From: an uncultured Candidatus Saccharibacteria bacterium | Lineage (GTDB): Bacteria; Patescibacteriota; Andersenbacteria; UBA10190 | Assembly: GCA_964371255.1 (NCBI GenBank) | Contig: CAYJKV010000003.1 | Location: 86,901 to 150,900, forward strand | DNA: 64,000 nucleotides | Reading direction: 5' to 3' | Part shown: positions 15,397 to 59,416 of the stretch, one piece after another | Layout: each line of letters begins with the position of its first letter | How positions within the stretch are numbered: position 1 is the stretch's first letter | Made by a program: the position numbers and the translations under genes | Notes under the pieces: generated by a model | Databases searched by the model: none | What the model saw: only the letters and a program-made list of their open reading frames with translations | What the model was told of the DNA's origin: nothing

Positions 15397-16515
15397 TCAG
15401 CGAACGGCCAATGTGTCCGCCTTGTATTCAAGGTTTTTCGGGACAATCACGACTTTCTTCTCATCGCCGCGCTTCTCAATGTGTCCGCCTTGCCACGCTT
15501 TTATGCCATGGCAGTGCGCCAATTCAATCACCGTCTGAACTTGGTCTGGCGGCACATAGAGAGCGAAGCCAGCACCCATATTGAAGTTCCCATAGGCTTC
15601 TTCATCGCTGACCGGGCCGTGTCCCTGAATAAACGAGAACAGTATCTGTGGCTTCCCGGGGTTGTCGATTATGTACACGAATGGCTCCACCGCTCGCATC
15701 AGCTTCCGCCAACCATGGCCAGTGATATTGACGGTGTAGTGCAGGTCGACACAGGACAAACAGGCTTCAATCGCTTGAACGTAGATCGTCGTTGGCTGCA
15801 CCAGTGCTTCGCCGTATGTCTGCCTGCCGGAAAGAGGTGTCATGTAGCCACCAGGCAGCTTATCAGCGATGCGGCGCGCCAGCGTCAGGCCGTTAGCGTG
15901 GATGCCGGAGCTGGCGAGCAGTACGATCGCGTCACCATCCTGGATCCGAGGCATGATCAGTAGTTCTTTGGGTTTGATCATGCCAATGGCAGAGCCACTC
16001 AAGACCACGGTCTCCGACGCAATCATATCCTTCAGCGTCGGTGTTTCACCACCAGCCCAAGTGCAGCATGCCAGATCACAGCCTTCCTTCCATCCGCGCA
16101 TCAGATCACGAACGCGTCGCTCATCCGTAAACCAGTTGCCATCTCCGGCGGCCAGATGCATTGCCAATGAAATCGGCAATGCGCCGACCGTGATCATGTC
16201 GTTCACGATCGTGGCAATCGTATCGCGCGCCACATAGTCGTAATACGAGCGGCCGGTGAGCTTGTACATGGCATCAGCCACGAGATTCTTACTGCCCAAG
16301 CCTTCCTCGACATGTGCTAAGTAACAGTCCGGCATTTCGATCAGATAGGCACTTTCGCCGCGACTCCACGGCACTTCCTTGAGATCAAACTCGCGCAGGT
16401 AATGGGCAGTCTCCTGTGCTGTTTCTTGTGCCTGCCGCTTGAACGGGTCCATCAGGCTGTAGTCAACGCCAGTGCTGGCATAGGTCATTGGCTTGGTCAT
16501 GGTTTGTTGCTCCAA
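15397..16515 (-). CDS. AIR synthase-related (PurM-like) protein
   Basis: Collinear with PurM: YASTGVDY (SYKDAGVDI), EEGLGSKNL (GTDGVGTKL), NDMITVGALP (NDLVVQGAEP), WAGGETPTL (VGGETAEMP), DGDAIVLLASSGIHANGLTL ([20 protein letters not shown]). Divergent from the canonical sequence. Confidence 0.65.
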   Translation of the reverse strand: MEQQTMTKPMTYASTGVDYSLMDPFKRQAQETAQETAHYLREFDLKEVPWSRGESAYLIEMPDCYLAHVEEGLGSKNLVADAMYKLTGRSYYDYVARDTIATIVNDMITVGALPISLAMHLAAGDGNWFTDERRVRDLMRGWKEGCDLACCTWAGGETPTLKDMIASETVVLSGSAIGMIKPKELLIMPRIQDGDAIVLLASSGIHANGLTLARRIADKLPGGYMTPLSGRQTYGEALVQPTTIYVQAIEACLSCVDLHYTVNITGHGWRKLMRAVEPFVYIIDNPGKPQILFSFIQGHGPVSDEEAYGNFNMGAGFALYVPPDQVQTVIELAHCHGIKAWQGGHIEKRGDEKKVVIVPKNLEYKADTLAVR

Positions 16516-16699
16516 ATTGTGAAAGGGCTAATTTGACGCTACGAAACAATTCCGAAGCGTGCAGGGTATCATACGTTTTCGGTCCAAATATGACAATTTA
16601 CATTTGCTGAAAGCGCCTCTCGCTGGTATGACCAAATGAGGCCGCGGATCGTCCGTGAGCTATTTTCTGAACATTCCCAACTAAATATAGGGAAAAACC

Positions 16700-19600
16700 A
16701 TGATCTATCGCATGTACCGACAGATGGACAGTAGTCTGGAGCTTGGTTTCTATATCGAGACCACAAGTCAGCTGTCCCAATTGGAGCAAAGACAGCTTCT
16801 GTGGCTGGTCGCAGAAACATTCGAACCCAGCCAAACTGGAACCGAACCCCACTTGACATCACCAGATGTCGTGGAAATCGGACCAAGGATTTCAATTGAG
16901 ACTCCATTCTCGTCGAATGCCGTCTCAATCTGCCAATCCATGGGGCTGCGGCAGATTACCCGTATCGAGCGTACTCACCGCCACCTAATTTGCAATGGCC
17001 AGTCGGCGGACATCCTCCTTCAGACTCATCTTGACCTAATGACCGAGCAGCACTACCCGAACGGAATCGAGAGTTTTGACACCGGCACATTGCCTGAAGG
17101 TGTCAAAGAAATCGACCTCATGGGTCGCGGCCAAGAAGCACTCGACGATATGAACAGTGCGCTTGGTCTTGGCATGGATGCCCGGGACCTCGAGTACTAT
17201 CAATATCTTTTTACTCAGGTCCTTCACCGGAATCCGACCGATGTTGAATTGTTCCAACTGGGCAACGCCAACAGCGAGCACAGCCGGCACTGGTACTTCA
17301 AGGGCCAGATTGTCATCGATGGAACGCCCATGCCGGAGACTCTCTTTGCGATCGTTCAGCGCCCGCTGAAAAGTCTCGGCAGTGATAATCGCAGCCTCGT
17401 TGCCTTTAGGGACAACGCTGGTGTGATCAAAGGATTCGGCACGCGCTTAATCCTTCCTGTCAATCCAGGCATGCCTTCGGCAATGTGTATCTTGGCAAAG
17501 GTGGTTCATATCACCTGTACCGCGGAAACTCACAACCATCCGACTTTCGTGTCGCCATACAATGGCGCTGCCACCGGTCCGGGAGGTGAAATACGTGACG
17601 GCAGTGCCGTTGGTTGTGGAGGTATATCAGGCATCGGTGTATTTGGTCTTTTTGTTGGCAACCTCTTTATCCCCGGGTATGAAATCCCAGGAGAAATAGT
17701 GGGTTACGGCAAACCGTCCAAGTACGCCTCTCCTCTTAGAATTCTGATTGAAGGAAGCAACGGGGCTTTTGATTACGGCAACCAGATCGGCAGGGCAGTC
17801 ACTCTAGGCTTTTGCCGAACCTTCGGTCAGACAGTCGGAGGCCAGTGGCGTGAGCCACGCAAACCAATCCTCTATAGTGGTGGTGTCGGTCACTTGTTTA
17901 ACGAGCACATCATTAAAGGGACGCCTGAAGTTGGCATGCTCATCGTGCGCATTGGCGGCCCCGCTTACCCTGTCGGGGTTGGCGGAGGCTCAGCTTCAAG
18001 CATGATGCAGGGTCAGAACACCGAGGATCTCGATTTCAACTCCGTCCAGCGCGGTAACGCAGAAATGGAGAATCGGGCGAACCGGGTCATTCGAGCCTGC
18101 ATCGAAATGGGCAATCAAAATCCCATCTCAAGTATTCACGATCAAGGTGCCGGTGGGCCGAGCAATGTTCTTACGGAACTTCTTGAACCCCTCGGCGGCC
18201 AGATCAACATTCGCGGCATTGTGCTTGGCGACAAGACGATGTCCGTCCTTAAAATCTGGAGCGCTGAATTTCAAGAAGGATATGGACTCCTGATCAGGCC
18301 GGAACGGATCGAACTTTTCATGTCGGTCTGTAAACGCGAGCGTGTCAACTGCGAAGTCCTCGGTGCAATCGATGGCCGTGGAAACGTTGTCGTTGAAGAT
18401 TCTCAAAACGGGACAACACCCGTCGCACTGAACCTGGATCAGATTCTGACGAATATGCCTCAGAAAACGTTCGAGTCTACCCGAGGGACTGAAGGCCTCA
18501 AACCTTTGAACCTGCCGGATGTCACTGTCGGCGAGGCACTGCGGGCGGTGTTCAAACTTCCCAGTGTGGGTTCGAAAGGGTTCCTTGTTCACAAGGTGGA
18601 CCGAAGCGTTACTGGGCTCGTCGCGCAGCAACAATGCTGTGGCATTGCCCAGATTCCGATTGCGAATGTGAGCATTAACGCACAAAGCCATTTCGGTTTA
18701 ACCGGAGCGGCCAGTGCAGTCGGTGAACAGCCGGTGAAGATGCTCATTGATCCGCGAGCTGGAGCCAGAATGGCGGTAGCAGAAATGCTGACCAACCTGG
18801 CCTCGGCACGGATTAGTGGTATGGAAGATATTCGATGCCGTGCCAACTGGATGTGGCCTGCTAAGCTGCCTAACGAAGGCGCCCTCCTCTATGAGGCCGC
18901 AGTTGCTATGTCTGACCTCATGGTCGGGCTTGGCATTGCAGTTGATGGAGGTAAAGATAGCCTGTCAATGGCAGCGACAATTTCGGGAGAGCTCGTAAAG
19001 GCGCCTGGCAGTTTAGTGATTCTCGGGTACGCCCCCGTGCCTGACATCACGAAGAAGGTCACGCCGGATATCAAGGAGGCAGGACGAAGCGAGTTGTGGC
19101 TGATTGATCTTGGACTGGGTAAAAATCGCCTAGGCGGTTCAGCTCTAGCTCAAGCGTTCAACCAGCTCGGTGATGAGTCGCCCGATGTTGACAGCCCTAA
19201 ACTCCTCAAGAACGCGTTTCTTGCGGTGCAACAGATGATCGACGACGGGTTGATTCTGTCTCTGCATGATCGAAGCGACGGTGGTCTCATAACCGCGGTC
19301 GCAGAGATGTGTATGGCCAGTTGCTGTGGATTCAGTCTGAGCGTTCCTAACGCTGAAGAATTACTGGCTAGTTTATTTAGCGAGGAGCTCGGGTTTATTG
19401 TAGAAGTTGAACAAGGAGAAAAGATTGGTCAAATTTGTAAACTTTGCCAGTCACTCGGTGTACCGATTTACAATGTTGGCAAGACGCTGTTAAGCACTTT
19501 GTGCGAGGTACATAATGGTGCTGATCAAACATTCTGGGATAGCTCAATTACAGATCTCCGGGCGTGGTGGGAGTCTACATGTTACGAAGTCGAGAAGTTG

Positions 19601-20539
19601 CAGATGAATCCCGCGTGTGCCGAAGAAGAACATGTTGCTCGCCAGAGCCGGCTTCCCAGCATTAATGCGGCTCCATCTTATCAGCTCTCGTTTGCTCCAA
19701 TTGCAACACCTCTGGCAGTTCTGGAGGCGGACAACAAACCTCGTGTGGCGGTGCTGCGCGAGGAAGGCACGAACGGCGACCGAGAAATGCAAGCTGCCTG
19801 TGCAGCAGCCGGTTTTGCACCATGGGATGTCACTATGAGTGATCTTCTGGCAGGCAGCATCAATCTGGATATGTTCCAGGGGATCATCTTTGCTGGCGGC
19901 TTCTCCTACAAGGACGTATTCGACAGCGCTAAAGGCTGGGCCGGGACAATCCTGTTCAATGATAGGTTGAGGGAGATGTTCGACCGCTTCTACGTCCGCG
20001 AGGATATATTCTCGCTCGGCGTGTGCAACGGCTGTCAGCTGATGGCGCTACTCGGATGGGTACCGTGGCAAGGCATTGCCAGTGAGATGCAACCGAGGTT
20101 CGTTCACAACACTTCGGGTCGGTTTGAGTCCAGGTGGGTACAGGTAGAAGTTTTACCCAGCCCATCGGTGCTTCTTAACGGCCTGGAAGGATCGAAGCTC
20201 GGCATATGGGTCGCTCATGGCGAAGGCCGACTGGTTTATCCGGATCAGTCGATTGCGCAGGAGGTTTTAAAGCTTAAGCTGGCACCTCTCGTCTACCTGG
20301 ATCCATATGGTGAGCAGACGGAACTGTATCCATACAATCCGAATGGTTCGCCGCTCGGGATTACGGCTCTGTGCTCTCCAGACGGACGTCATCTTGCAAT
20401 GATGCCTCATCCAGAACGTTGTTTTCGTTGGTGGCAGTGGCCTTGGCAGCCAGCTTCATGGCAACGTCTCAACACCTCTCCATGGCTCCGGATGTTTCAG
20501 AACGCCAGGGAATGGTGCAGGGCTTACGGACTTATCTAA
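16700..20539 (+). CDS. purL: phosphoribosylformylglycinamidine synthase, large single-chain type
   Basis: 1279 aa. ETHNHPTFVSPYNGAATGPGGEIRD FGAM-synthetase core. C-terminal class-I glutamine amidotransferase (GVCNGCQLMALLGW). N-terminal repeat as in E. coli PurL. Confidence 0.9.
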   Translation: MIYRMYRQMDSSLELGFYIETTSQLSQLEQRQLLWLVAETFEPSQTGTEPHLTSPDVVEIGPRISIETPFSSNAVSICQSMGLRQITRIERTHRHLICNGQSADILLQTHLDLMTEQHYPNGIESFDTGTLPEGVKEIDLMGRGQEALDDMNSALGLGMDARDLEYYQYLFTQVLHRNPTDVELFQLGNANSEHSRHWYFKGQIVIDGTPMPETLFAIVQRPLKSLGSDNRSLVAFRDNAGVIKGFGTRLILPVNPGMPSAMCILAKVVHITCTAETHNHPTFVSPYNGAATGPGGEIRDGSAVGCGGISGIGVFGLFVGNLFIPGYEIPGEIVGYGKPSKYASPLRILIEGSNGAFDYGNQIGRAVTLGFCRTFGQTVGGQWREPRKPILYSGGVGHLFNEHIIKGTPEVGMLIVRIGGPAYPVGVGGGSASSMMQGQNTEDLDFNSVQRGNAEMENRANRVIRACIEMGNQNPISSIHDQGAGGPSNVLTELLEPLGGQINIRGIVLGDKTMSVLKIWSAEFQEGYGLLIRPERIELFMSVCKRERVNCEVLGAIDGRGNVVVEDSQNGTTPVALNLDQILTNMPQKTFESTRGTEGLKPLNLPDVTVGEALRAVFKLPSVGSKGFLVHKVDRSVTGLVAQQQCCGIAQIPIANVSINAQSHFGLTGAASAVGEQPVKMLIDPRAGARMAVAEMLTNLASARISGMEDIRCRANWMWPAKLPNEGALLYEAAVAMSDLMVGLGIAVDGGKDSLSMAATISGELVKAPGSLVILGYAPVPDITKKVTPDIKEAGRSELWLIDLGLGKNRLGGSALAQAFNQLGDESPDVDSPKLLKNAFLAVQQMIDDGLILSLHDRSDGGLITAVAEMCMASCCGFSLSVPNAEELLASLFSEELGFIVEVEQGEKIGQICKLCQSLGVPIYNVGKTLLSTLCEVHNGADQTFWDSSITDLRAWWESTCYEVEKLQMNPACAEEEHVARQSRLPSINAAPSYQLSFAPIATPLAVLEADNKPRVAVLREEGTNGDREMQAACAAAGFAPWDVTMSDLLAGSINLDMFQGIIFAGGFSYKDVFDSAKGWAGTILFNDRLREMFDRFYVREDIFSLGVCNGCQLMALLGWVPWQGIASEMQPRFVHNTSGRFESRWVQVEVLPSPSVLLNGLEGSKLGIWVAHGEGRLVYPDQSIAQEVLKLKLAPLVYLDPYGEQTELYPYNPNGSPLGITALCSPDGRHLAMMPHPERCFRWWQWPWQPASWQRLNTSPWLRMFQNAREWCRAYGLI

Positions 20540-20922: not shown

Positions 20923-22113
20923 ATGTTTCGCGTCAAAGTTCTTAGTAATGACCCGTCACCTCTCGCCTACAAGCCTCGTACCTATATTGTCGAAGCTCAA
21001 ACCGACCAAACTGTTGGCTATGGTTCTCATTCTGATTGCGCGACTGCCCGAGAAATTGCTATCGCTGAAGCAAGCGAACGGCAGGCTGTCTACGCTAACC
21101 TTCCCCTCAATGTTGGCCCGCTCAATGGCAGCAGTCAACGAATTGATCCCAGGACACTGATGCCGCTTTCCGTCGAGCAACTTCGTCACGTTTATTTGGA
21201 GGAATTCAATCCTGATCTGGACTATCGATGGCTGGCCGGTCATGAAGTTATGAACGGTTCGCCGGTCGAGATCATTGCGGATTGTTGTCTTTATTCTCTG
21301 CCAGATAATTGGCCCAACGGCCGTGTTGCCTGGGCGAATTCTAACGGCATGGCTGCTGGCAAGACGTATGACGACGCTGAAAAATCCGCTCTGCTCGAGT
21401 TATTCGAAAGAGACGCGCTGATGAATATCTGGATGTCACGTTTCTCGCCGCCCCAAATCGCTAACCGTCATCTGCCCGGCAAAGTCACTGCCATTCAGAA
21501 GGACTTATCCAGTACCGGCTACCAGTTTGCCACCCTTGACGCTACTTGTCGCTCTGTCCCGGTTGTGATCACATTGGCTTACCGGGACCGGCCCCCGGCA
21601 TTAGTTCTAACAGCAGCAGCGCGTTTTTCGTTGGTCGAAGCCGTTCACGCTGCCTGGCGCGAACTTGAGCGGGAAATATTTCTCCGGTTACTGTTAGCTA
21701 AGTCATCTGCTTCAACTGCTATGCCAACCAAGATACCGATCACTTGTGTCCGCAGCAGCAACGACCACGCCTCCTTTTACAGTGATCCTGAAAATTCGTC
21801 ATACGCTAGCTTTCTCTGGCAAAGCGATCCGGCCGACAACCAACCAGAGGACCGACACCAGCTTTGTGACCAACCGTCGTCAATATGGGACCTAAGAACT
21901 TGTTGCCAAAACTGCTCCATCAGTCAGCTATATTATCTCGACTATGGATTAATTAATGGCCACCATGTTATTCGTTTAATGACCCCGGATCTTGTGCCTT
22001 TGTTGTTCGGATATAATCAATTTCCCTTAGCCCATCGGGCTCGCCATACCTGTTATCTTCCATCTCTAACCCCTAACTGGAACTGCCCTGTTCCACCTCA
22101 CCCCTTGGATTGA
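20923..22113 (+). CDS. stand-alone YcaO-domain protein (cyclodehydratase-like ATP-dependent amide activator)
   Basis: VGYGSHSDCATAREIAIAEASERQAV and WANSNGMAAGKTYDDAEKSALLELFERDAL match the YcaO ATP/Mg signature. C-terminal Pro-rich end ...CPVPPHPLD (PxPxP-like). Cys-rich C-terminal segment. Confidence 0.75.
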   Translation: MFRVKVLSNDPSPLAYKPRTYIVEAQTDQTVGYGSHSDCATAREIAIAEASERQAVYANLPLNVGPLNGSSQRIDPRTLMPLSVEQLRHVYLEEFNPDLDYRWLAGHEVMNGSPVEIIADCCLYSLPDNWPNGRVAWANSNGMAAGKTYDDAEKSALLELFERDALMNIWMSRFSPPQIANRHLPGKVTAIQKDLSSTGYQFATLDATCRSVPVVITLAYRDRPPALVLTAAARFSLVEAVHAAWRELEREIFLRLLLAKSSASTAMPTKIPITCVRSSNDHASFYSDPENSSYASFLWQSDPADNQPEDRHQLCDQPSSIWDLRTCCQNCSISQLYYLDYGLINGHHVIRLMTPDLVPLLFGYNQFPLAHRARHTCYLPSLTPNWNCPVPPHPLD

Positions 22114-25630: not shown

Positions 25631-26353
25631 TCAACCGTGAGGAAAAAGAAATCGCGCGGCGCGCTTGGCTTCTACGAGGGTTACTTTTTCATCCGGCCCT
25701 ACCAACCGCTCACTACGAGAGAGATCGACGACACGTCCTTCACTGATCATTCCTAGCGTTTCGATCTGCACTTGATGCTCAACCGGCAGAACTCGCTGTT
25801 GAAGATCGGTTGTATCATCGTCCGGTGCAATCTCGATCGTTTGCCTGTGAATGACAGCACCCCGATCAAACTCCGGGGACACGAATTGAGCGATGGCTTC
25901 CGTCCAGTAGTCACGCTTGGTAGCTCGGACAAAGTAAAGCCGTGCTGCGTGAACGCGCTTGCCGTACATACCTTTGCCACCGAAATCGGGATACCCCGGA
26001 TCAAGTGGACCGGGATGTTGGTTGATCATCCGTCCAGAGAAGGCCTCAATAACGTTGGCCGGCGTCTTGGGCATCCAGCCATACTGGCCGATCCAATCCG
26101 CATGATATTCCCGACAGATGTTCAGGATATGATCACCGAACTCATCAGGGGAGTCGTACCATTGTGGCAGTGCCAATATTGCGTGAACACCGGCAGTCTG
26201 AACCCGTTGAATGCCTGCGGCCTTTTCATTGCTGCACAGCACACAGGCTGGTTCAACATGTTGTAAGCGGCCACTTTGACAGGCGCGTATAATCTCGAGA
26301 GCAGTTGTGCCGCCACCTGATATAAGTAGCAAAAGGCGAAGTTTGTCCGACAT
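25631..26353 (-). CDS. PurN-like formyltransferase (GAR transformylase family), divergent
   Basis: LLISGGGTTALEIIRACQSG (VLISGRGSNMEAIVRAC in PurN) and NQHPGPLDP (NIHPSLLP). C-terminal extension. Active-site region differs from canonical PurN. Confidence 0.6.
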   Translation of the reverse strand: MSDKLRLLLLISGGGTTALEIIRACQSGRLQHVEPACVLCSNEKAAGIQRVQTAGVHAILALPQWYDSPDEFGDHILNICREYHADWIGQYGWMPKTPANVIEAFSGRMINQHPGPLDPGYPDFGGKGMYGKRVHAARLYFVRATKRDYWTEAIAQFVSPEFDRGAVIHRQTIEIAPDDDTTDLQQRVLPVEHQVQIETLGMISEGRVVDLSRSERLVGPDEKVTLVEAKRAARFLFPHG

Positions 26354-26649
26354 GGTTATCTCCTTGGTTTGCGCAATGTACGGTCGTTATCGAACTAGAA
26401 CACCCAGTTCAGCGTCGTTGGAACATAGCACGGCGAAATACCCGAGGCAAAACCAAATGGTGACGAGCCGCGTGATTAGTGCTAAATTGCCTCGATGCAA
26501 CAGAGATGGATAAAGGTGCAAGTACAATCAATTTAAACCGTGCCGAATTTGCGAATTTATTTCGCAAACTGAGGCCACCTTGTGGGAAAGGAGCAGCGAA
26601 ACGAAGTGAAGCGATGAGGAAAGGGATACGTCCCTTCCCTCATTACGTG

Positions 26650-26722
26650 TCCAGCGGGTAGGAGTTGAACCTACTTAAAAGGGTTTTACAGACCCTCGCC
26701 TCAGCCGTTCGGCCACCGCTGG
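26650..26722 (-). tRNA. tRNA-Tyr (GTA), class I (5-nt variable loop), C1:G72 acceptor pair
   Basis: Manual fold: acceptor CCAGCGG/CCGCTGG, anticodon stem AGGGT/ACCCT, loop CTGTAAA, T-arm GTAGG-TTCAACT-CCTAC, variable loop TTTAA. Confidence 0.7.
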
Positions 26723-26987
26723 TATAAATCTAACGGTTAATCTAATTGACTGTATGATATTAATATTCTACCGTACAATGTCAACTATACCAGTTATTGC
26801 TGATTTGTACCGGTCTTTGAAAATTGACATTTGTCCCAAAGGAATCCCTTAGGGAAAAATTTCTTCATATGCCACCTTAGCTTCCCACTTCGCCCTCGCA
26901 TTCTCTCAGGGCTTCGCGGGACGAGCGTACGTTAAATAACGTACCTCTCGCCCAACGAAGTTCTGCTGGAAAGCAGAACAAAGTTAG

Positions 26988-27059
26988 GCCACCTTAGCTC
27001 AGCGGTAGAGCAGGGCTTTTGTAAAGCTCAGGTCGTCGGTTCAAGTCCGACAGGTGGCT
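26988..27059 (+). tRNA. tRNA-Thr (TGT)
   Basis: Manual fold: acceptor GCCACCT/AGGTGGC, D-arm GCTC-AGCGGTA-GAGC, anticodon loop TTTGTAA, T-arm GTCGG-TTCAAGT-CCGAC. Confidence 0.75.
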
Positions 27060-27212
27060 CAAAGCTATTACTCAATAAACTTCTGGAGACCCAGTATATT
27101 TCAAAACTGAAACGACAGTTAGCAATAAGCTGGACAAAAATCCAGCTGTTTGTATATTATCTGTCACGTTGTTCGTTTTACTTAAGAGCCTCTAATTGAC
27201 GGAGATACTACC

Positions 27213-27641
27213 ATGGACAAAGCGAGGATCATCGCTACCAATGAGCAAGCCGTCCTTCTCGCGACTAGCTTGATGGACATTGCCCAGCAAACAGGCCTTG
27301 AAATTACCATCACCATTCCACCTCAAACGGAACCTTCGGCAGAGGTAGAAACCGAGCGCCACGACCGCACCATATTAGAAAACAAAAGAATAGATCTGGC
27401 ATGGTTAGAGGCGCGATTAACTCAATACCCAGACGAGATGGCTCGATTACGAAACCATTACGTGGCCGTGTTCAATAAACAAGTCGTCTCCATCGGTCAC
27501 AATGAGGAGCTTGTCTTGCTTGGTGCTGCCGCCTCCTTGGACGTGATGCCCGACGAAATCCTTGTCGTCCCTGTGCAAGTTGATGGCACCGACTCAGATG
27601 AGCACTGGCTCAACGTTAAACGACGGCTGGAAATTGCCTAG
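27213..27641 (+). CDS. hypothetical protein with DUF5678-like C-terminal region
   Basis: C-terminal HYVAVFNKQVVSIGHNEELVLLGAAA resembles the DUF5678 core. No other recognisable motif. Confidence 0.45.
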   Translation: MDKARIIATNEQAVLLATSLMDIAQQTGLEITITIPPQTEPSAEVETERHDRTILENKRIDLAWLEARLTQYPDEMARLRNHYVAVFNKQVVSIGHNEELVLLGAAASLDVMPDEILVVPVQVDGTDSDEHWLNVKRRLEIA

Positions 27642-27720
27642 GGAAAGACCGGGCCCCCCACCATAGCCTAAAAACTATGGTGATTTTTATTTATTCACAA
27701 AATAACCTATCGTTATTTGT

Positions 27721-28839
27721 ATGACAGACAAAACAGCTATCATTAATCGCTTAATAAAAAATAGCGCCGAGATCATCACCGAAGATGAATTTCTCGAGCG
27801 CCTCGAGTCCGGCAATCAACTGACCCATTATATTGGATTTGAAATTTCCGGCTATGTCCATATCGGGCAGGGGATTATGGGCGCGTTGGTCATGAAAGAT
27901 TTGACGGATGTAGGTGTAAAGTGCACCGTCTGGCTGGCCGATTGGCACACCTGGATCAATGAAAAACTGGATGGGACCAAAGAAACCGCTGCGGCTATCG
28001 GTCGGGGCTATTTTACTGAAGCCATCAAAGCTGCCTACCTCGCGGTGGGCGGTAATCCAGCTGATTTAGAATTTCGTCTAGCCAGTGATTGGTACCAGCA
28101 AAATCCAATGGCATACTGGGAAACAGTGCTTGGTGTGATGAACCACACTACGGAGGCTCGTCTGATGCGAAGTATCAGTATTATGGGCCGTCAGGAGGGG
28201 AGTGAGATCGAGGGGGCTAAACTTATGTACCCGGCCATGCAAGTTGCTGATATATTTTTTCAAAAGGTAGATATCGCGCACGCCGGTATGGATCAACGCA
28301 AGGCCCACGTTGTTATGCGGGATGTCGCACCTAAAGTATATCCAGACCAACCTAAACCCATCGCTCTGCACCACCCATTATTGATCGGTCTTAAAAAACC
28401 AGCAACGTGGCCAATACCCGTCGGTACCGCCCAAAAAGATGTCATTATAGAAATGAAGATGAGTAAATCGGATCCTAATTCTGCCATCTGGGTTCATGAC
28501 ACGCCGGATGAAATTTCTAAAAAAGTTAATCAGGCATTTTGCCCCGAAAAGGAAATAGATTTTAACCCCATTCTCAATTGGATCGGCCATATCCTCTGGT
28601 GGGATCGGCAGACACCTTTTCGTATCGAGCGTAAGCCGGAACATGGCGGGGGAGTGGAATACGCTTCTTATGAGGCATTAGAACAAGCCTACGCTGCCGG
28701 TGATATTCATCCCATGGATTTAAAAGCCGCCGTTGCCAAAGAGCTAATTACTTTATTGGAACCGGCGCGTGCCCATTTCGCTAAGCCGGACGTAGCTGCC
28801 AAAAAATCCGAACTCGACAACCTCCTGCAAAAAAAGTAA
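27721..28839 (+). CDS. tyrS: tyrosyl-tRNA synthetase, archaeal/eukaryal type (no S4 domain)
   Basis: Collinear with the M. jannaschii TyrRS signature regions: SAEIITEDEF, HYIGFEISGYVHIGQ (YIGFEPSGKIHLGH), KMSKSDPNSAIWVHDTPDEI (KMSSSKGNFIAVDDSPEEI), HPMDLKAAVAKELITLLEP (HPMDLKNAVAEELIKILEP). Confidence 0.85.
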   Translation: MTDKTAIINRLIKNSAEIITEDEFLERLESGNQLTHYIGFEISGYVHIGQGIMGALVMKDLTDVGVKCTVWLADWHTWINEKLDGTKETAAAIGRGYFTEAIKAAYLAVGGNPADLEFRLASDWYQQNPMAYWETVLGVMNHTTEARLMRSISIMGRQEGSEIEGAKLMYPAMQVADIFFQKVDIAHAGMDQRKAHVVMRDVAPKVYPDQPKPIALHHPLLIGLKKPATWPIPVGTAQKDVIIEMKMSKSDPNSAIWVHDTPDEISKKVNQAFCPEKEIDFNPILNWIGHILWWDRQTPFRIERKPEHGGGVEYASYEALEQAYAAGDIHPMDLKAAVAKELITLLEPARAHFAKPDVAAKKSELDNLLQKK

Positions 28840-28874
28840 CTTTAATATCGTCCCGCCCGCGGGATTTCCCCTTT

Positions 28875-28893
28875 GTCCACACCTGGTGTGGAC
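28875..28893. promoter_or_regulatory. near-perfect 9+9 palindrome GTCCACACC-N-GGTGTGGAC between tyrS and tRNA-Thr
   Basis: Seen directly. No T-run follows, so it is not a canonical terminator. Confidence 0.3.
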
Positions 28894-28908
28894 ATGAGGG
28901 ATTAATTA

Positions 28909-28980
28909 GCCGATGTAGCTCAGTGGTAGAGCAACTCCATGGTAAGGAGTAGGTCGTGGGTTCAATTCCCACCATCGGCT
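28909..28980 (+). tRNA. tRNA-Thr (GGT)
   Basis: Manual fold: acceptor GCCGATG/CATCGGC, D-arm GCTC-AGTGGTA-GAGC, anticodon stem ACTCC/GGAGT, loop ATGGTAA, T-arm GTGGG-TTCAATT-CCCAC. Confidence 0.75.
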
Positions 28981-29092
28981 CAAAATTTCTTATTATCCAA
29001 TACCATTATGGATGCCGCGCGGCAAATAAATGAGCGCTACTGACCGATTTCTGCTTTCTTCATTTTACGTCCGGGCTTCTTCAAATTACTCT

Positions 29093-30622
29093 GCAAGGAT
29101 GTCATTCAAATCATTCTTTGTCTTAATAATCCTCCTGGTGCTCTTGTCCGCTATTGTCTGGAAAATCAGTGACAATCATTTCCAAACGGCAGTAACCGAT
29201 TCCGCAACCACGCCGTCAGTCGCACCAAAACCAGTGGCGCCCATACCTAATTTTACAGTTATCGCCCTGCAAGTAGCGGCGGATAATCGACGCGTTATAA
29301 ACTGTCTGCGCAACAATTGCCAGCCCTTGCCCGCCGTCGACGCCTCCATCTCTGCGGCCGTGACTGACGGACAGTCCTGGTATCACTACCAATCCGTCAC
29401 CGACGATGATTCAGTCCAGAAGATTTTACAGCTCAAACGCACCTGGATCAATCAAAACAAAAGTGATCTGGTTATAGAGCAAACCCGCCTGGTAAAACCT
29501 CGCGGGTTATATATCAGTCCCGATGCCACAAAAGTAGCGTTCTGGTTGGACAATATCAGTGAGCCAAGTAAGAACCTCACTGAGCTGTGGCTCTATGATG
29601 CGGATAGCCAGAGCACCAAACTGATCGCGGAAAAATTAAACACCAGCAGCGTCATTACCGAACCGCGCTGGAACCGAGCTTCCACTCACCTTTGGTTTCT
29701 TGGCGATACTGCTTCGGCGGATAAAAAAACATCCGTCGCTCTGCACCTGGTTGCCATTCAGCCGCCATCATTTGATATCGCTTTCAGCAATATCGAGTGG
29801 CAGCCTATGGTTGACTCCGTCCCAATCAACCCCCTAGACATGGATCCCACCGGCCAATCAATTGCCTACGTAAAACCAAAAGCCAACAAAACAATGCTCC
29901 ATATCCAACGTAATCCCCAAACGATAGATATCACTACTCTATCGGGCACCGTTCCTTATCTTCAATGGCTGCCGGATGGGACGCTGATCTATGCCGTCCA
30001 AACCCGGTTTTCATTTACCTTCTGGCAAGTCAAAGGATCCATCCACAAACATATAGCTAAATATCAGGGTGTGTTTCAATCGGCTCGTTCAGATGCGGCT
30101 GGCCATTTCATCCTTTTTAATACTCGGCCATCCGCTCAGGTCGGACAGGTTTATGCGCTGGATGTGGCTACCGGCCGCATAGCGCACCAATCACTTTTAC
30201 CGAGCTATGGCGACCAGACTTTCTTAATTCATTTTAGGTTAGACGAGGCTGCTCAAACTGATAGTCCGGACATAACTGCGCCGATAGACGATGAGCAGGT
30301 AGCTGCTTTCCTTGATAAATATATCACCTCTATTGCCGAAGCAGACGCGAAACCACAGCGTTTTATTACCACCGACCAGCTCAATACTGTCTGGTTTGAT
30401 TACCGCGTTCCGGCCGGCGACAAGAAGCGTCTTCTTATCACAATTAAAGATGTTATTCATGCCGAATGGTCTATCAGCGCTCGTTACAAAGAAGCGGCGG
30501 GGGAATGGCTGCTGGAGCAGGGGAATGTTCTCCACCCACCGCAAGCCAGGCGTGTCTATGAATGGGAAGAAGATCCCGCGCAGTGGATATTAAAAGAGAC
30601 GCTAAGCAACAGCGCGCCATAG
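29093..30622 (+). CDS. hypothetical secreted/membrane-anchored protein (about 510 aa)
   Basis: N-terminal signal anchor MSFKSFFVLIILLVLLSAIVW. Start taken at the internal ATG, which has a better RBS than 29030. Confidence 0.55.
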   Translation, partial: ARMSFKSFFVLIILLVLLSAIVWKISDNHFQTAVTDSATTPSVAPKPVAPIPNFTVIALQVAADNRRVINCLRNNCQPLPAVDASISAAVTDGQSWYHYQSVTDDDSVQKILQLKRTWINQNKSDLVIEQTRLVKPRGLYISPDATKVAFWLDNISEPSKNLTELWLYDADSQSTKLIAEKLNTSSVITEPRWNRASTHLWFLGDTASADKKTSVALHLVAIQPPSFDIAFSNIEWQPMVDSVPINPLDMDPTGQSIAYVKPKANKTMLHIQRNPQTIDITTLSGTVPYLQWLPDGTLIYAVQTRFSFTFWQVKGSIHKHIAKYQGVFQSARSDAAGHFILFNTRPSAQVGQVYALDVATGRIAHQSLLPSYGDQTFLIHFRLDEAAQTDSPDITAPIDDEQVAAFLDKYITSIAEADAKPQRFITTDQLNTVWFDYRVPAGDKKRLLITIKDVIHAEWSISARYKEAAGEWLLEQGNVLHPPQARRVYEWEEDPAQWILKETLSNSAP

Positions 30623-31035: not shown

Positions 31036-31106
31036 GGGGGTGTGGTCTAGTGGTATGATCTTCCTCTCCAAAAGGAAAGACGGGGGTTCGATTCCCTCCA
31101 CCCCTG
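31036..31106 (+). tRNA. tRNA-Trp (CCA)
   Basis: Manual fold: anticodon stem TTCCT/AGGAA, loop CTCCAAA, T-arm GGGGG-TTCGATT-CCCTC, acceptor GGGGGTG/CACCCCT. The D-arm is slightly atypical. Confidence 0.65.
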
Positions 31107-32761: not shown

Positions 32762-33019
32762 AGGGCATCAATTGCCAACATCCTCACCTGGTTTTGATTA
32801 TTCTCTCAAGTAAGCTGTTAGAGCACTTTTACTTGTGACGGCCGTTGTCTGCCCATCCACCAAATAGCCTTGCAACAGTACGCTAAATCAGTGATTCCGT
32901 CACGTTTACCGGAGCATAAAGCATAATATGAAGCCAGACTTGCCTTGCTATTGACAATATTTAATATAAGCAGTATTATAACAAAGAGTACTTTCCCAAC
33001 CCATCGTAAGGAGGCGAAC

Positions 33020-33556
33020 ATGTTAAAAGACGTAGCAGCCAAGCCAATAGTGCAATTAGTAGAGGAAGCGCAAAGTGGCAGTAAAACGGCCTTTGGTGAT
33101 CTTTATCTCACCCACGTTTTACTGGTACGCACAGTTCTTGCCCGTTGGTTATCCCGCTCAAATGACGTAGAAGACTTAACACACGATGTGTTTTTGCAGG
33201 CATTTTTGAAAATTAGCACGCTGCGCAACAGTAATGCTTTTAAGGGGTGGCTGCTTACTATCGCTCACAACCGAGCTATAAACTATTGCCGGCGACAGAA
33301 AACACAGATCAACCCGGCCGACATTAACCAATTGGTAGTGGATGGCCGACCTGAGCATCCCGATGTGTCGGACACTTATGACCAGGTTAACCATGCGATG
33401 CGCCAGCTAAAATCTTCTGACGCAAACAGCCTAGTCGACTTCTACTGGCGCCATCTCTCAATCAATGACATTGCTGCTAAAGAGAACGTTCCAAGCGGGA
33501 CCGTGAAGCGTCGTTTGCACATCGCCCGCCAGAGAATTGCCGCGCACCTTCAATAA
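33020..33556 (+). CDS. ECF-family RNA polymerase sigma factor (sigma-70 regions 2 and 4)
   Basis: DLTHDVFLQAFLKI...WLLTIAHNRAINYCRRQ (region 2) and LSINDIAAKENVPSGTVKRRLHIARQRI (region 4 HTH). AAGGAGG RBS before the ATG at 33020. Confidence 0.75.
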   Translation: MLKDVAAKPIVQLVEEAQSGSKTAFGDLYLTHVLLVRTVLARWLSRSNDVEDLTHDVFLQAFLKISTLRNSNAFKGWLLTIAHNRAINYCRRQKTQINPADINQLVVDGRPEHPDVSDTYDQVNHAMRQLKSSDANSLVDFYWRHLSINDIAAKENVPSGTVKRRLHIARQRIAAHLQ

Positions 33557-44489: not shown

Positions 44490-46772
44490 TTATTCCTCCA
44501 GTGATATGGATAAAACCTTCGTTCCATCCAGGACATACAGCTTTTTCTCGTCCGTGCTAACAGCGATATCTTTTGCAGACGACTCCTCGCCCAAGAATAT
44601 CTGTCGGATGAGATGGCCAACTGTGTCCCAAACAACTACCCGTTTATTAACTAAATCCAACACATATAAATGACGAAGGCTCTCATTAATGACTAAGGAC
44701 GACTGTTCCGACACCTTGGGTTCTACTTGTTCCATTTTAAACTCCACTTCTTCGCCCTTCAGCAGCTTTCTAATTATGCCGTCGCTATGCAAGGTATAAA
44801 CATAACCATCAACGCCCATATCAATCACGTTATTACGCGGGAAGGTCGCACTTGTTATCCATGGATTGCCTCCGCTATAGCCGCGCAGTGTTTTACTATA
44901 TCCGTAGATGTTATCCATCGTCCCGTCATACAAATAAATCCGGTTGCCGAACGTGGCTAGCGCAACCACCACACTTTGCTCTGACGGCAGTTGTACCTCT
45001 TGTTTCTGCAACACTTCAGTCTTGATGTCATAAAGGGCCAGGCCAGGTTCATCCGTTGCCAGCACTATGTTCTTATCAGCTTCCTGGGTTGCGCCTACTG
45101 TAAAAAAGCCAATGCCGCTCGTATTTTTACTAACTTTTTCGACCGTACCATTCTCTCCGACTCGCACGATTACATTACTGGCTGGATCGAAGCTATATAT
45201 GGCATCGTTGACAAAGAAGATTCTGGTAGGGGCCTGGTTGGTTATTACAGACCCTAAGTCACCAATGATAGTAGTGGCGTTAGGTGCCACTCTGGTTACC
45301 TTATCAAGTCTGTCCTGGACAGCGGTAATCCCATCCGCCAACTCAGTCACTTGGTCCTGATACAGACCTGACAACTTAATGCGATCGATAATTTGCTGAG
45401 CGTCTGCCAGCAACACCCGGGCCTGCTCTCTGTTGTCATAAATTAACGCAGTCTCAGCCGCTCCTTTTTTTGTTCTCGCCTCATGTAAAAACTCGCTCGC
45501 TTGTTGAATTTGTTCATCGGCCGCTCTTTTTTGTTGCAATAAAACCACGCTAATTCCTAATAAAATGGTCAGCAATATAGCCGTAACACCAAAAATTTTG
45601 CTGCTGCGCGGTAATTTATTAATACCATTCATCATTGATCGTCCAATATTTTTCATCAAATCTTTCCCTCCGGCTGACCGCATTGTCAGCCCCGGCCTGT
45701 TGCCGCCGCCAGCATTACCCAAACTCTTTTTGAACTTCTTGTTAGTGAAGGACTGCACGCCGCGGCCGGCCGTTTTAGATACCTGAAAGATAGCCCTGCC
45801 ACTGCGTCGCGAACCCTCCTTCACGTATGGCCAAATGACTTGTTGTATCTTTTGTCCGCTATACACCGCTATCCGGCCGATCAACAAAAATACCTTTTTA
45901 CCGATGGATCGGCTAATTATCAAAGGCTTACGAGGTGTTAAACCAGTGACAGAAAGGGGCTGGCGATTAGCAGCCGTCGAAACAGTTCGTCGATGTCCTC
46001 GGGACTGGTCCGGTGACATCGCAATTACTAAGGCCGCCACTGGTTGGGGTCGCTTCTGATCTTCTGACAATTGGCGTAGTTGCATCGCAATCGTCTCGCC
46101 GGTTTGATCAGCTACAAAACGTACCAGATCCTCGCTGCGAAACACCTGATCAAAGTTGCTTGTGCCAACAAAAATAATATCTCGTTCATTAACTAGACCG
46201 CTCGCTACTGATGAAAAGGTACGCAGAGGATCAAGAATAGGGGAATGAGACAAGCCGGCGGATAATAATGTCAGTTTTTGCGCGCGGGATAATAAAACAA
46301 TACCCTCTCCAGCCGTACTGACATGCAGCGTGAGATGCGGTGCCTCATGGCTTTCCCCCGATTGCTTATTAGACTCAGCCAGCGCACCCACCGCCACATG
46401 AAATGATCCCATCCACTCCCGCACTCCTTGCTCCACCAAGTCATGTAAAATCAGATTGGCTTGATGCAGAGAGGACTCGAAACTTGCCAGCACTCCTCGG
46501 GCCGGGTCGCGATAATATTCGCGTTGCAAGGCCTGGATAACAGTATCAATGATTTCTTTGCCGGCGTGGTCCAATTTTTCTGTCTCAGCGGCCGCGTATA
46601 ACCAGCCTAATTTGACCTCGCCGCCGGCGGGTTCAAAAATAAACGTGTCGCCCACGGCGCGCGAACCATCAAACATTACCAATTCATCAGCATCTGGTAT
46701 CATAGTTGTCATTATAGAAGCTGCGCGACAATTTATAAAACCTCTTATTGCTTTTGCTTTTCTGTTAAGCAT
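44490..46772 (-). CDS. large hypothetical protein: cytoplasmic N-domain, central TM helix, C-terminal beta-propeller-like repeats
   Basis: 760-aa ORF. TM segment IFGVTAILLTILLGISVVLL. Repeated hydrophobic/aromatic blades in the C-terminal third. No confident family assignment. Confidence 0.55.
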   Translation of the reverse strand: MLNRKAKAIRGFINCRAASIMTTMIPDADELVMFDGSRAVGDTFIFEPAGGEVKLGWLYAAAETEKLDHAGKEIIDTVIQALQREYYRDPARGVLASFESSLHQANLILHDLVEQGVREWMGSFHVAVGALAESNKQSGESHEAPHLTLHVSTAGEGIVLLSRAQKLTLLSAGLSHSPILDPLRTFSSVASGLVNERDIIFVGTSNFDQVFRSEDLVRFVADQTGETIAMQLRQLSEDQKRPQPVAALVIAMSPDQSRGHRRTVSTAANRQPLSVTGLTPRKPLIISRSIGKKVFLLIGRIAVYSGQKIQQVIWPYVKEGSRRSGRAIFQVSKTAGRGVQSFTNKKFKKSLGNAGGGNRPGLTMRSAGGKDLMKNIGRSMMNGINKLPRSSKIFGVTAILLTILLGISVVLLQQKRAADEQIQQASEFLHEARTKKGAAETALIYDNREQARVLLADAQQIIDRIKLSGLYQDQVTELADGITAVQDRLDKVTRVAPNATTIIGDLGSVITNQAPTRIFFVNDAIYSFDPASNVIVRVGENGTVEKVSKNTSGIGFFTVGATQEADKNIVLATDEPGLALYDIKTEVLQKQEVQLPSEQSVVVALATFGNRIYLYDGTMDNIYGYSKTLRGYSGGNPWITSATFPRNNVIDMGVDGYVYTLHSDGIIRKLLKGEEVEFKMEQVEPKVSEQSSLVINESLRHLYVLDLVNKRVVVWDTVGHLIRQIFLGEESSAKDIAVSTDEKKLYVLDGTKVLSISLEE

Positions 46773-47641: not shown

Positions 47642-47716
47642 GGGTGCATAGCTCAGCGGCAGAGCGCTACGTTCACATCGTAGAGGCCGAAAGTTCGATC
47701 CTTTCTGCACCCACCA
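47642..47716 (+). tRNA. tRNA-Val (CAC), CCA encoded
   Basis: Manual fold: acceptor GGGTGCA/TGCACCC, anticodon stem CTACG/CGTAG, loop TTCACAT, T-arm GAAAG-TTCGATC-CTTTC. Ends ACCA. Confidence 0.8.
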
Positions 47717-57826: not shown

Positions 57827-59416
57827 TTGGGACTAGCTAAATCGTCAGATTTTGGCTATTTTAACTTCATGCAGCTGCGCGAAGATGTCAAAAATTTAAT
57901 TACCTATTTTCAGGTGCCTGCCGTTGAACCGGCGCCGGAGAGCCTGATTGAAGTATCATCGGCCACTAAACGCATCGCGTTTGCCTATGAACGTTTTCGC
58001 AATACTCTGGAACCAGACGAAGAAGAACTTCTGCGCCGCAAAGCCATTTTGCGCATTCTCGAACGGCGCCTCTTTGAGGATCGATCCCCGGTGACCATCG
58101 CCACCACGTTATTACAGGAACTCATCCGCGCCAACTATATTAAGAATTCCCCTAAATCCTACGCCCAACAAATCGGTCACATCCTACGCAAAGCGAAACA
58201 AATTTACACCGCGCTTTCCCCGGTTAATGCGGAGTGGTTCTTGCGCTTGGTCGCTGTAGCCATCGACCATCATCTGTATCCGCCTGATCGCCAGGAGGCC
58301 TTGGTCCATCTCATGTATCATGACACATTTCCCCGGATTGCCTGGACGGACAATTTCGTCACGGAAGTCGACCGGCCAACCCAGCTCTATCTGGCCTGTC
58401 ACCGCGCTCTCTTTGCCGCCGATAATAGCGAGCTGGCCTATCATTATTTTGTGCATCACTTTCCCGAGTGGCAGCAGGATGAATTTGACATTGCGCAAGT
58501 CGATCACATCGCCAAAAACATTCCCCAATTCCATAACTTTATCACTAACGCCCTCGAGCATCCTGCCTGTGACCGACTAACCCGTTTGTTGCGCCCCATT
58601 GCTGTCCCGTATCTGACGCTGCGCGACATGGTGACGGAGCGGGGAGAAAGCGTTTTTGATTCAGAGCAACTCTTCACCGAAGCCGCCCAGGAAGCGGTCA
58701 CCCATCGCACAAAAAAAACCCGTAGTCGGATCAGCCGGCGTGCCTGGCATAGCATCCTATTTTTATTCATGACTAAGACTCTTTTGGCCTTATTGCTGGA
58801 AGTGCCCTATGAGAAATATCTGATTGGCCAGATCCATTATCTATCCTTGGCCGCCAACATTACTTTCCACCCTTTGCTCCTCTTTGCCCTCGCGACCAGT
58901 GTCCGCCTGCCCGGACAACGCAACACCGAACGCGTCATTGAACAATTACGCAAGATAGTCTTGGGAGAAGGGGAACTGCCCACGGTTATGATTAGTGCTC
59001 CTCGTCGTTATGGCACGACAACCTGGTCCGCCTTCGCGATCTTTTATGCCCTTCTATTTATCGTGATCTTTTGGGGTTTATTCACCTTGCTTGATCGGCT
59101 CGAGTTCTCGCTCCTAGCCATGTTTTTCTTTGTGATCTTCTTGGGTTTAGTTAGTTTCTTAGCTACTCGCATCCGCCGGTCAGCGGATGAACTGCGTATT
59201 ATTTATAAGGGTGAAACAATTTTCTCGGCCATGACCAGCTTTTTCGCTCTGCCCATTCTAGAGTTTGGCCGCTGGTTAGCCCAAAACATCCGCCAGCTGA
59301 ATGTCGTGCTGTTTCTAATGGATCGGGTTTTGGAAGCGCCCTTCAAGATTTTAATCGATATCACTGAAGAGTGGTTTGATTTCATTCACGACCGTCGCGA
59401 AGAAATAGTTAAATAA
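57827..59416 (+). CDS. hypothetical membrane protein (large cytoplasmic N-domain, C-terminal TM helices)
   Basis: Long ORF. TM cluster near residues 400-470. Start may be the internal Met (MQLREDV). Confidence 0.5.
   Translation: MGLAKSSDFGYFNFMQLREDVKNLITYFQVPAVEPAPESLIEVSSATKRIAFAYERFRNTLEPDEEELLRRKAILRILERRLFEDRSPVTIATTLLQELIRANYIKNSPKSYAQQIGHILRKAKQIYTALSPVNAEWFLRLVAVAIDHHLYPPDRQEALVHLMYHDTFPRIAWTDNFVTEVDRPTQLYLACHRALFAADNSELAYHYFVHHFPEWQQDEFDIAQVDHIAKNIPQFHNFITNALEHPACDRLTRLLRPIAVPYLTLRDMVTERGESVFDSEQLFTEAAQEAVTHRTKKTRSRISRRAWHSILFLFMTKTLLALLLEVPYEKYLIGQIHYLSLAANITFHPLLLFALATSVRLPGQRNTERVIEQLRKIVLGEGELPTVMISAPRRYGTTTWSAFAIFYALLFIVIFWGLFTLLDRLEFSLLAMFFFVIFLGLVSFLATRIRRSADELRIIYKGETIFSAMTSFFALPILEFGRWLAQNIRQLNVVLFLMDRVLEAPFKILIDITEEWFDFIHDRREEIVK

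Follow-up and report, generated by a model that had tools for sequence, protein, structure and literature searches.

We investigated a tyrosine-charging locus, made of a tRNA-Tyr gene and a nearby tyrS gene for a tyrosyl-tRNA synthetase (TyrRS), in a 64,000-nucleotide (nt) stretch of contig CAYJKV010000003.1, which is deposited as DNA of an uncultured Candidatus Saccharibacteria bacterium. This whole stretch is called the window (64 kb), and positions are counted from its first letter. The two genes lie on opposite strands, with 999 nt between the tRNA gene and the start codon of tyrS:

26650-26722, minus strand: tRNA-Tyr(GUA), called by ARAGORN (26649-26722) and by the Rfam tRNA model RF00005 (57.1 bits, E=1e-9)
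27721-28839, plus strand: tyrS, an archaeal/eukaryal-type TyrRS of 372 amino acids (aa), assigned from its matches to NF006330, PF00579 and PDB entries and from its place in a tree

An earlier reading of the letters alone (the sequence-only reading) had described here a class-I, C1:G72 tRNA-Tyr about 1 kb away from an archaeal-type TyrRS lacking the bacterial C-terminal domain, on the opposite strand and in a bacterial context. The results below bear out this description.

The tRNA genes were called with ARAGORN and the Rfam tRNA covariance model, and tRNA-Tyr was further analysed by its minimum-free-energy (MFE) fold and by covariation counts. The gene specifies a 73-nt RNA with no encoded CCA, which reads 5'->3' CCAGCGG-UG-GCCGAACGGCUGAGGC-G-AGGGUCUGUAAAACCCU-UUUAA-GUAGGUUCAACUCCUAC-CCGCUGG-A. 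Its acceptor stem opens with the pairs C1:G72 and C2:G71, its discriminator is A73 and its D arm contains a G13-A22 mismatch. The variable loop is UUUAA (5 nt) and there is no long variable arm (V-arm): the tRNA belongs to class I. The MFE structure is a cloverleaf (-30 kcal/mol, z = -2.6). This fold is maintained in an alignment of 10 distinct homologous tRNA-Tyr sequences, in which the cloverleaf is 100% paired, compensatory changes occur in 12 of the 20 pairs, and C1:G72 and C2:G71 are invariant. The observed values were reached by no shuffle, and slid controls were 34-48% paired. All the tRNA-Tyr genes of related loci are 72-77 nt long and have C1:G72, A73 and a variable loop of 4-5 nt; genes combining C1:G72, A73, the GUA anticodon and a short loop were found in 10 loci of the Andersen clade or of other CPR (candidate phyla radiation) bacteria, and in one Chloroflexota locus. 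In one tRNA-Tyr copy, beside an array of six tRNA genes on a 2.5-kb contig (L005, 527-603, minus strand), the 3' acceptor strand is CGATAGT and unable to pair with the 5' strand CCAGCGG; either this gene is a pseudogene or the assembly is chimeric here.

The synthetase is assigned to the archaeal type by several matches. It scores 369.6 bits over residues 5-359 against the archaeal-type equivalog NF006330/PRK08560 of NCBIfam (cut-off 220), whereas its score against the bacterial model TIGR00234, 83.7 bits, falls under the cut-off of 113.8. The class I Rossmann-fold catalytic domain PF00579 (tRNA-synt_1b) was matched with 126.5 bits and no S4 domain was matched in the Pfam search. The three motifs quoted in the sequence-only reading are all present, namely HYIGFEISGYVHIGQ at aa 36-50, KMSKS at 246-250 and HPMDLKAAVAKELITLLEP at 330-348; the first ends in HIGQ (aa 47-50), which occupies the place of the HIGH motif. 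The best PDB match is the TyrRS of Pyrococcus horikoshii (2cyc, 351.6 bits, residues 8-355); other archaeal enzymes come next, then eukaryal ones, and bacterial ones score far lower (35.7 bits for Thermus thermophilus 1h3e). The P. horikoshii enzyme (375 aa) can be aligned with the window TyrRS from one end to the other, and only about 17 residues of the window TyrRS follow the anticodon-binding domain.

The residues by which an archaeal TyrRS contacts its tRNA are known from the Methanocaldococcus jannaschii enzyme (MjTyrRS), in which Arg174 contacts C1, Arg132 contacts C1 via water, Lys175 contacts G72, A73 is read by the backbone of Val195 and G34 stacks on His283 (Tsunoda et al. 2007, PMC1934993). 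The window TyrRS was aligned with an M. jannaschii sequence identical to 1j1u_A, with which it shares 34% identity. In this alignment R132, R174 and K175 of MjTyrRS correspond to R150, R193 and K194 of the window enzyme, and H283 and D286 to H330 and D333; Asp286 presumably takes part in the recognition of G34. Tyr37 stands at the position of the tyrosine-binding Tyr32 and KMSKS is intact. Since the residues contacting C1-G72 and G34 are conserved, the window TyrRS appears to be equipped to recognise a tRNA with C1:G72, A73 and a GUA anticodon, and would be specific for the C1:G72 tRNA-Tyr encoded nearby. It also has no counterpart of the domain with which bacterial TyrRS grip the long variable arm.

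The genes on both sides of the tRNA-Tyr/tyrS pair are bacterial. The window encodes RF1, PrmC, the alpha and beta subunits of an F-type ATPase, a penicillin-binding protein transpeptidase and Mur ligases, as well as MurB, MraW, YceG, a ClpB-like ATPase and RmuC, and over the region the GC content stays at 0.47-0.49. Proteins from metagenome-assembled genomes (MAGs) of Candidatus Andersenbacteria match the TyrRS with 87-90% identity, the value for the RIFCSPHIGHO2 MAGs being 87%, and homologues of 58-87% identity were found, some on contigs as long as 576-850 kb. The host belongs to the Candidatus Andersenbacteria clade of CPR/Patescibacteria. The pair is the only one of its kind in the window: in a tblastn search with 41 archaeal- and bacterial-type TyrRS, matches were confined to 27.7-28.8 kb and revealed no second class-Ic synthetase in the 64 kb, and none of the other tRNA genes called by ARAGORN in the window, which holds six in total, is a second tRNA-Tyr.

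We placed the enzyme in a neighbour-joining tree of 41 sequences from the loci (Kimura distances, 341 columns, 200 bootstraps), rooted on bacterial-type TyrRS. The bacterial-type outgroup, which is 23% identical to the window TyrRS, separates with 100% support, and the window TyrRS falls within an Andersen clade (100% bootstrap). This clade belongs to a 'long-form' group that also contains DPANN archaea (Pacearchaeota, Woesearchaeota and Iainarchaeum), other CPR, Chloroflexota and Dormibacterota (99.5%), and that is itself nested within a wider archaeal diversity (Nanoarchaeota, Altiarchaeales, Methanosarcinales and ANME-1). Within the group, the Andersen clade is sister to the mixed DPANN/CPR/Chloroflexota sequences and does not lie inside them (71.5% support for the sister group). 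The sequence-only reading had placed the enzyme among archaeal/eukaryal TyrRS, and this is where the tree puts it, apart from the bacterial type; the topology agrees with the acquisition of tyrS from a DPANN-like archaeon. In the same tree, the TyrRS of a contig labelled Gammaproteobacteria (L032) groups with Nanoarchaeota and Woesearchaeota (100% support); this contig is probably mis-binned or mislabelled.

Archaeal-type TyrRS with about 50% identity also occur in MAGs labelled Chloroflexota, Dehalococcoidia and Dormibacterota (L039; L015, L016, L017, L020), on contigs where bacterial domains (EAL, bactofilin, Big_1/invasin) are encoded by neighbouring genes. One Chloroflexota locus, L039 (5821-7122), has a class-I C1:G72 tRNA-Tyr on the strand of tyrS and 106 nt upstream of it, so that the two genes look like a cassette.

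The surroundings of the pair form a cluster of tRNA genes with the following features:

26757-26784, minus strand: candidate sigma-70-like promoter (TTGACA-16-TAATAT), about 35 nt upstream of tRNA-Tyr, from a consensus scan
26988-27060, plus strand: tRNA-Thr(UGU), thrU-like, divergent from tRNA-Tyr (ARAGORN and Rfam)
27213-27641, plus strand: open reading frame (ORF) of 142 aa with no assigned family, between tRNA-Thr(UGU) and tyrS
27659-27692, plus strand: terminator-like hairpin followed by a T-run, between the 142-aa ORF and tyrS
28909-28981, plus strand: tRNA-Thr(GGU), thrT-like, the next gene after tyrS and on its strand (ARAGORN and Rfam)
29030-30622, plus strand: ORF of 530 aa with no assigned family, between tRNA-Thr(GGU) and tRNA-Trp
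31036-31106, plus strand: tRNA-Trp(CCA) with discriminator G73 (ARAGORN and Rfam)

The order tRNA-Tyr and tRNA-Thr(UGU), tyrS, tRNA-Thr(GGU), a ~530-aa ORF and tRNA-Trp is found in about 10 related loci from independent assemblies. The tRNA-Thr(UGU) gene adjoins tRNA-Tyr in L001-L005 and L007-L010; in three of these loci (L003, L009 and L010) the two genes follow each other on one strand, tRNA-Thr(UGU) leading and 0-120 nt separating them. On the other side of tyrS, tRNA-Thr(GGU) is kept downstream in Andersen-clade loci, and the 530-aa ORF, which has no Pfam or NCBIfam match, has counterparts of 29-40% identity at the same position in 11 related Andersen-clade loci. The 142-aa ORF, likewise without a Pfam or NCBIfam match, is a variable insert outside the core of the module, because it is present in five loci (L001, L002, L003, L007 and L008, at 33-48% identity, and nowhere else) and absent from four (L004, L005, L009 and L010), in which tRNA-Thr abuts tyrS. 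The tRNA-Trp gene carries G73, the bacterial Trp identity (PMC5370408); hence, of the Tyr and Trp systems, only the Tyr system is of the archaeal type. As for the candidate promoter, the number of promoter-like matches in a consensus scan of the region is not above that of shuffled sequence. Considering the recurrent synteny, the complete pairing of the aligned cloverleaves, the compensatory changes and the invariant C1:G72, the conserved tRNA-Tyr/tyrS pair looks functional and vertically inherited, and reflects neither chance nor contamination. The matched, non-bacterial-type tyrosine module that had been proposed from the letters is thereby retained: the contact residues are kept, the enzyme is nested among DPANN TyrRS, and the pair recurs in about 10 related MAGs.

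Such a pair is already published for the Andersenbacteria lineage. In 'Bioinformatic Analysis Reveals Archaeal tRNATyr and tRNATrp Identities in Bacteria', Mukai, Reynolds, Crnkovic and Soll (Life 2017, PMC5370408) reported that Parcubacteria, Microgenomates, WS6 and WWE3 combine an archaea/eukarya-type TyrRS with a C1-G72 tRNA-Tyr, listed Andersenbacteria among the major bacterial TyrRS groups in the legend of their Figure 2, and proposed DPANN-related donors. The phenomenon and the lineage are the same here. The two analyses differ in that the Andersen-clade tRNA-Tyr genes that we examined all lack a V-arm, whereas many of the CPR C1-G72 tRNA-Tyr genes described in 2017 retain one, and in that the synteny of tRNA-Tyr, tRNA-Thr(UGU), tyrS, tRNA-Thr(GGU) and tRNA-Trp does not appear in the 2017 text. 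Chloroflexota and Dormibacterota are not mentioned there either ('Chloroflexi' has 0 occurrences), and a literature search on TyrRS in Chloroflexi, Chloroflexota and Dormibacterota returned nothing relevant. Our literature search found no later biochemical follow-up of the archaeal-type Tyr pairs of CPR bacteria. What is added to the 2017 work is modest: an argument on the change of the tRNA drawn from the synteny of the cluster, and a possible extension to Chloroflexota and Dormibacterota.

Among characterised systems, the P. horikoshii enzyme (2cyc) resembles the window TyrRS in being 'long-form': about 20 aa are inserted ahead of KMSKS. MjTyrRS (1j1u, tRNA complex) lacks this insert. The window enzyme has HIGQ for HIGH, and His308 where MjTyrRS has F261. 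Tyr37, R150/R193/K194, H330/D333 and KMSKS are common to the window enzyme and these archaeal ones, but the host here is a bacterium. With the canonical bacterial system (T. thermophilus 1h3e; Escherichia coli tyrS and tyrU/tyrT) the pair shares class Ic, PF00579, the GUA anticodon and A73, and in E. coli too tyrU lies beside tRNA-Thr(UGU). In contrast, the window enzyme has no S4-like C-terminal domain and only 23% identity to the bacterial type, and its tRNA has a 5-nt loop and C1:G72 where tyrU has a 13-nt variable arm and G1:C72. The pair follows the same identity logic as the M. jannaschii TyrRS/tRNA-Tyr pair used as an orthogonal pair in E. coli, in which C1:G72 bars cross-reaction with the bacterial pair (PMC1934993). 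In contrast to that pair, the window pair is most likely a native system and the sole one for Tyr. The two tRNAs differ at about 30% of positions.

The cluster as a whole resembles the thrU-tyrU-glyT-thrT-tufB operon of E. coli (PMC6134099). The same anticodons, Thr(UGU), Tyr(GUA) and Thr(GGU), are grouped at 26650-28981, and the co-directional Thr(UGU)-Tyr arrangement of thrU-tyrU is present in L003, L009 and L010. Unlike the E. coli operon, the window has no tRNA-Gly and no tufB, its tRNA-Tyr is inverted, and tyrS (with the 142-aa ORF in some genomes) stands between the two Thr tRNA genes. The spot held by tufB in E. coli is occupied here by the 530-aa ORF, and neither secE-nusG nor tuf is present downstream of tRNA-Trp in the window. 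Further on, an ORF at 32945-33556 may encode a sigma-70/extracytoplasmic function (ECF) factor, judging by its sequence, and MurB comes next.

In our view, the window very probably represents an Andersen-clade CPR bacterium that charges tyrosine with an archaeal/eukaryal-type system, obtained from a DPANN-like donor and serving as its sole Tyr system. The 372-aa TyrRS, presumably a homodimer as in its relatives, would bind tRNA-Tyr without needing a long variable arm; Arg150, Arg193 and Lys194 would read C1:G72, and Asp333 together with His330 would read G34 of the GUA anticodon. The cognate tRNA-Tyr would match this enzyme by its C1:G72 pair, the bacterial long variable arm having been lost or never present. 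Most likely, tyrS was acquired a single time at the base of the Andersen clade, the donor being a DPANN-like archaeon, and vertical inheritance followed. The gene now lies within a thrU-tyrU-thrT-like cluster, flanked on its own strand by tRNA-Thr(UGU) and tRNA-Thr(GGU), with both of which it may be co-expressed, and the cell most likely has no Tyr system besides this archaeal-type pair.

Several points weigh against parts of this explanation. The position of F261, which in MjTyrRS presumably stacks on G34, is taken by His308 in the window TyrRS. The terminator-like hairpin ahead of tyrS argues against simple read-through from tRNA-Thr(UGU). The search for a second tyrS or tRNA-Tyr covered the 64-kb window only. 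As to the direction of transfer, a neighbour-joining tree of this size with a bacterial-type root cannot fix it, and Mukai et al. (PMC5370408) raised a transfer from bacteria to archaea as an alternative.

The limited span of the search bears on whether the genome also holds a canonical bacterial TyrRS/tRNA-Tyr, the archaeal-type pair then being an auxiliary one with a specialised role, for instance in stress response or antibiotic resistance, as has been proposed for the TrpRS-A/tRNA-Trp(A73) operons. Bacterial and archaeal Trp pairs do stand together in one Beckwithbacteria genome (PMC5370408), and the part of the genome inspected here amounts to 64 kb. However, the same study reports no such coexistence for the Tyr system, the archaeal-type pair is kept across a deep clade (62-87% identity) within a housekeeping tRNA cluster, and the window itself contains no second class-Ic synthetase or tRNA-Tyr. 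CPR genomes, moreover, are small and rarely keep duplicate synthetases. We regard an auxiliary role as improbable. Still less likely is that the archaeal-type Tyr identity is primitive in these bacteria, or passed from them to archaea. Besides the bacteria-to-archaea transfer, Mukai et al. (PMC5370408) raised an archaeal identity resembling that of the last universal common ancestor, and the Andersen clade is indeed sister to the DPANN/CPR/Chloroflexota group (71.5%), not within it. Against this, rooting on the bacterial type puts the 'long-form' clade as a whole inside archaeal diversity (Altiarchaeales, Methanosarcinales, ANME-1, Nanoarchaeota), and among bacteria the archaeal type is scattered, the bacterial type being used by most of them, CPR included (PMC5370408). 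An assembly or binning artefact, in which a DPANN fragment was joined to a bacterial contig, might be suspected, since CPR and DPANN organisms co-occur and their bins are sometimes cross-contaminated (PMC5370408); the related locus L032 does look mis-assigned. It is rejected here as scarcely credible: the 64 kb are contiguous with bacterial genes on both sides and a GC content of 0.47-0.49 throughout, the same gene order recurs in about 10 independent MAGs from different studies, and the tRNA-Trp 2 kb downstream carries the bacterial G73.

The acquisition of tyrS from a DPANN-like donor is compatible with two origins of the tRNA, and the evidence is divided between co-transfer and co-evolution. 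If the class-I tRNA-Tyr is itself archaeal, it would have come with tyrS as a cassette and displaced the resident bacterial tRNA-Tyr, and Mukai et al. (PMC5370408) do speak of cognate tRNAs of 'bacterial or archaeal origins'. The tRNA comparison uses a single reference per domain, M. jannaschii tRNA-Tyr and E. coli tyrU, which limits what can be read from it: the window tRNA-Tyr is 70% identical to the former and 59% to the latter without its V-arm, and its acceptor stem, CCAGCGG, agrees with the M. jannaschii CCGGCGG at 6 of 7 positions. The excess similarity to M. jannaschii appears, however, to reside mostly in this stem, where convergence is to be expected since the stem is under identity selection. 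In the D arm, the similarity to M. jannaschii (10/17) does not exceed that to E. coli (11/17), and tyrU has G13-A22 as well. As most of the differences fall in the acceptor stem, which bears identity, the sequence comparison does not settle where the tRNA came from. The cassette-like arrangement of L039 favours co-transfer, but in the window tRNA-Tyr lies 1 kb from tyrS on the opposite strand, beside tRNA-Thr(UGU), which it follows co-directionally in L003, L009 and L010 as tyrU follows thrU in E. coli. On balance we consider co-transfer possible but doubtful.

The setting of the cluster gives a hint in the other direction. The gene tyrS seems to have been inserted into an old bacterial thrU-tyrU-thrT-like tRNA cluster, and since tRNA-Tyr seems to hold its old bacterial position beside tRNA-Thr(UGU), an adaptation of the tRNA in place is hinted at rather than its arrival on a cassette. 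The V-arm-bearing C1-G72 tRNA-Tyr genes of other CPR bacteria (PMC5370408) are plausible intermediates of a change in place. The inference that the sequence-only reading had drawn from co-localisation thus stands in part: the proximity of the two genes is conserved, but it is weaker evidence for co-transfer than had been supposed, because tRNA-Tyr sits in a Thr(UGU)/Tyr(GUA)/Thr(GGU) cluster with the anticodons of the E. coli operon, into which tyrS may have been inserted. These elements can be joined into one tentative scenario, in which tyrS was inserted into an ancestral thrU-tyrU-thrT operon, a flip of the 1:72 pair and then the loss of the V-arm reshaped the resident class-II tRNA-Tyr in place, and the same swap spread to Chloroflexota and Dormibacterota as a tRNA-tyrS cassette; taken with all its parts, this scenario is conceivable rather than probable. 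If the remodelling in place is true, the Andersen clade would be the end-state of a natural swap of identity sets, and intermediates with C1:G72 and a V-arm would survive in other CPR bacteria.

The locus bears on the co-evolution of synthetases and their tRNAs, and implies that tRNA identity rules are not tied to a domain of life, as an archaeal-type Tyr pair can serve the proteome of a bacterium. Pairs of this kind would also be a natural source for the expansion of the genetic code, orthogonal in bacteria and yet adapted to a bacterial host, a point already made in 2017.

Some other observations concern the remainder of the window. Among the tRNA genes, only tRNA-Val(CAC) (47642-47716, plus strand) encodes the 3' CCA; the other five, tRNA-Tyr included, do not, and a CCA-adding enzyme is therefore needed. 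Pfam gave no match at E<=0.001 for two large ORFs, of 760 aa at 44490-46772 (minus strand) and of 529 aa at 57827-59416 (plus strand). A gene of the YcaO family is located at 20923-22113. Genes for purine synthesis are found at 15397-20539 and 25631-26353 and encode a 1279-aa single-chain PurL/FGAR-AT, a protein like PurM and a formyltransferase like PurN. As nucleotide biosynthesis is generally said to be missing from CPR bacteria, de novo purine genes are somewhat unusual in a CPR window.

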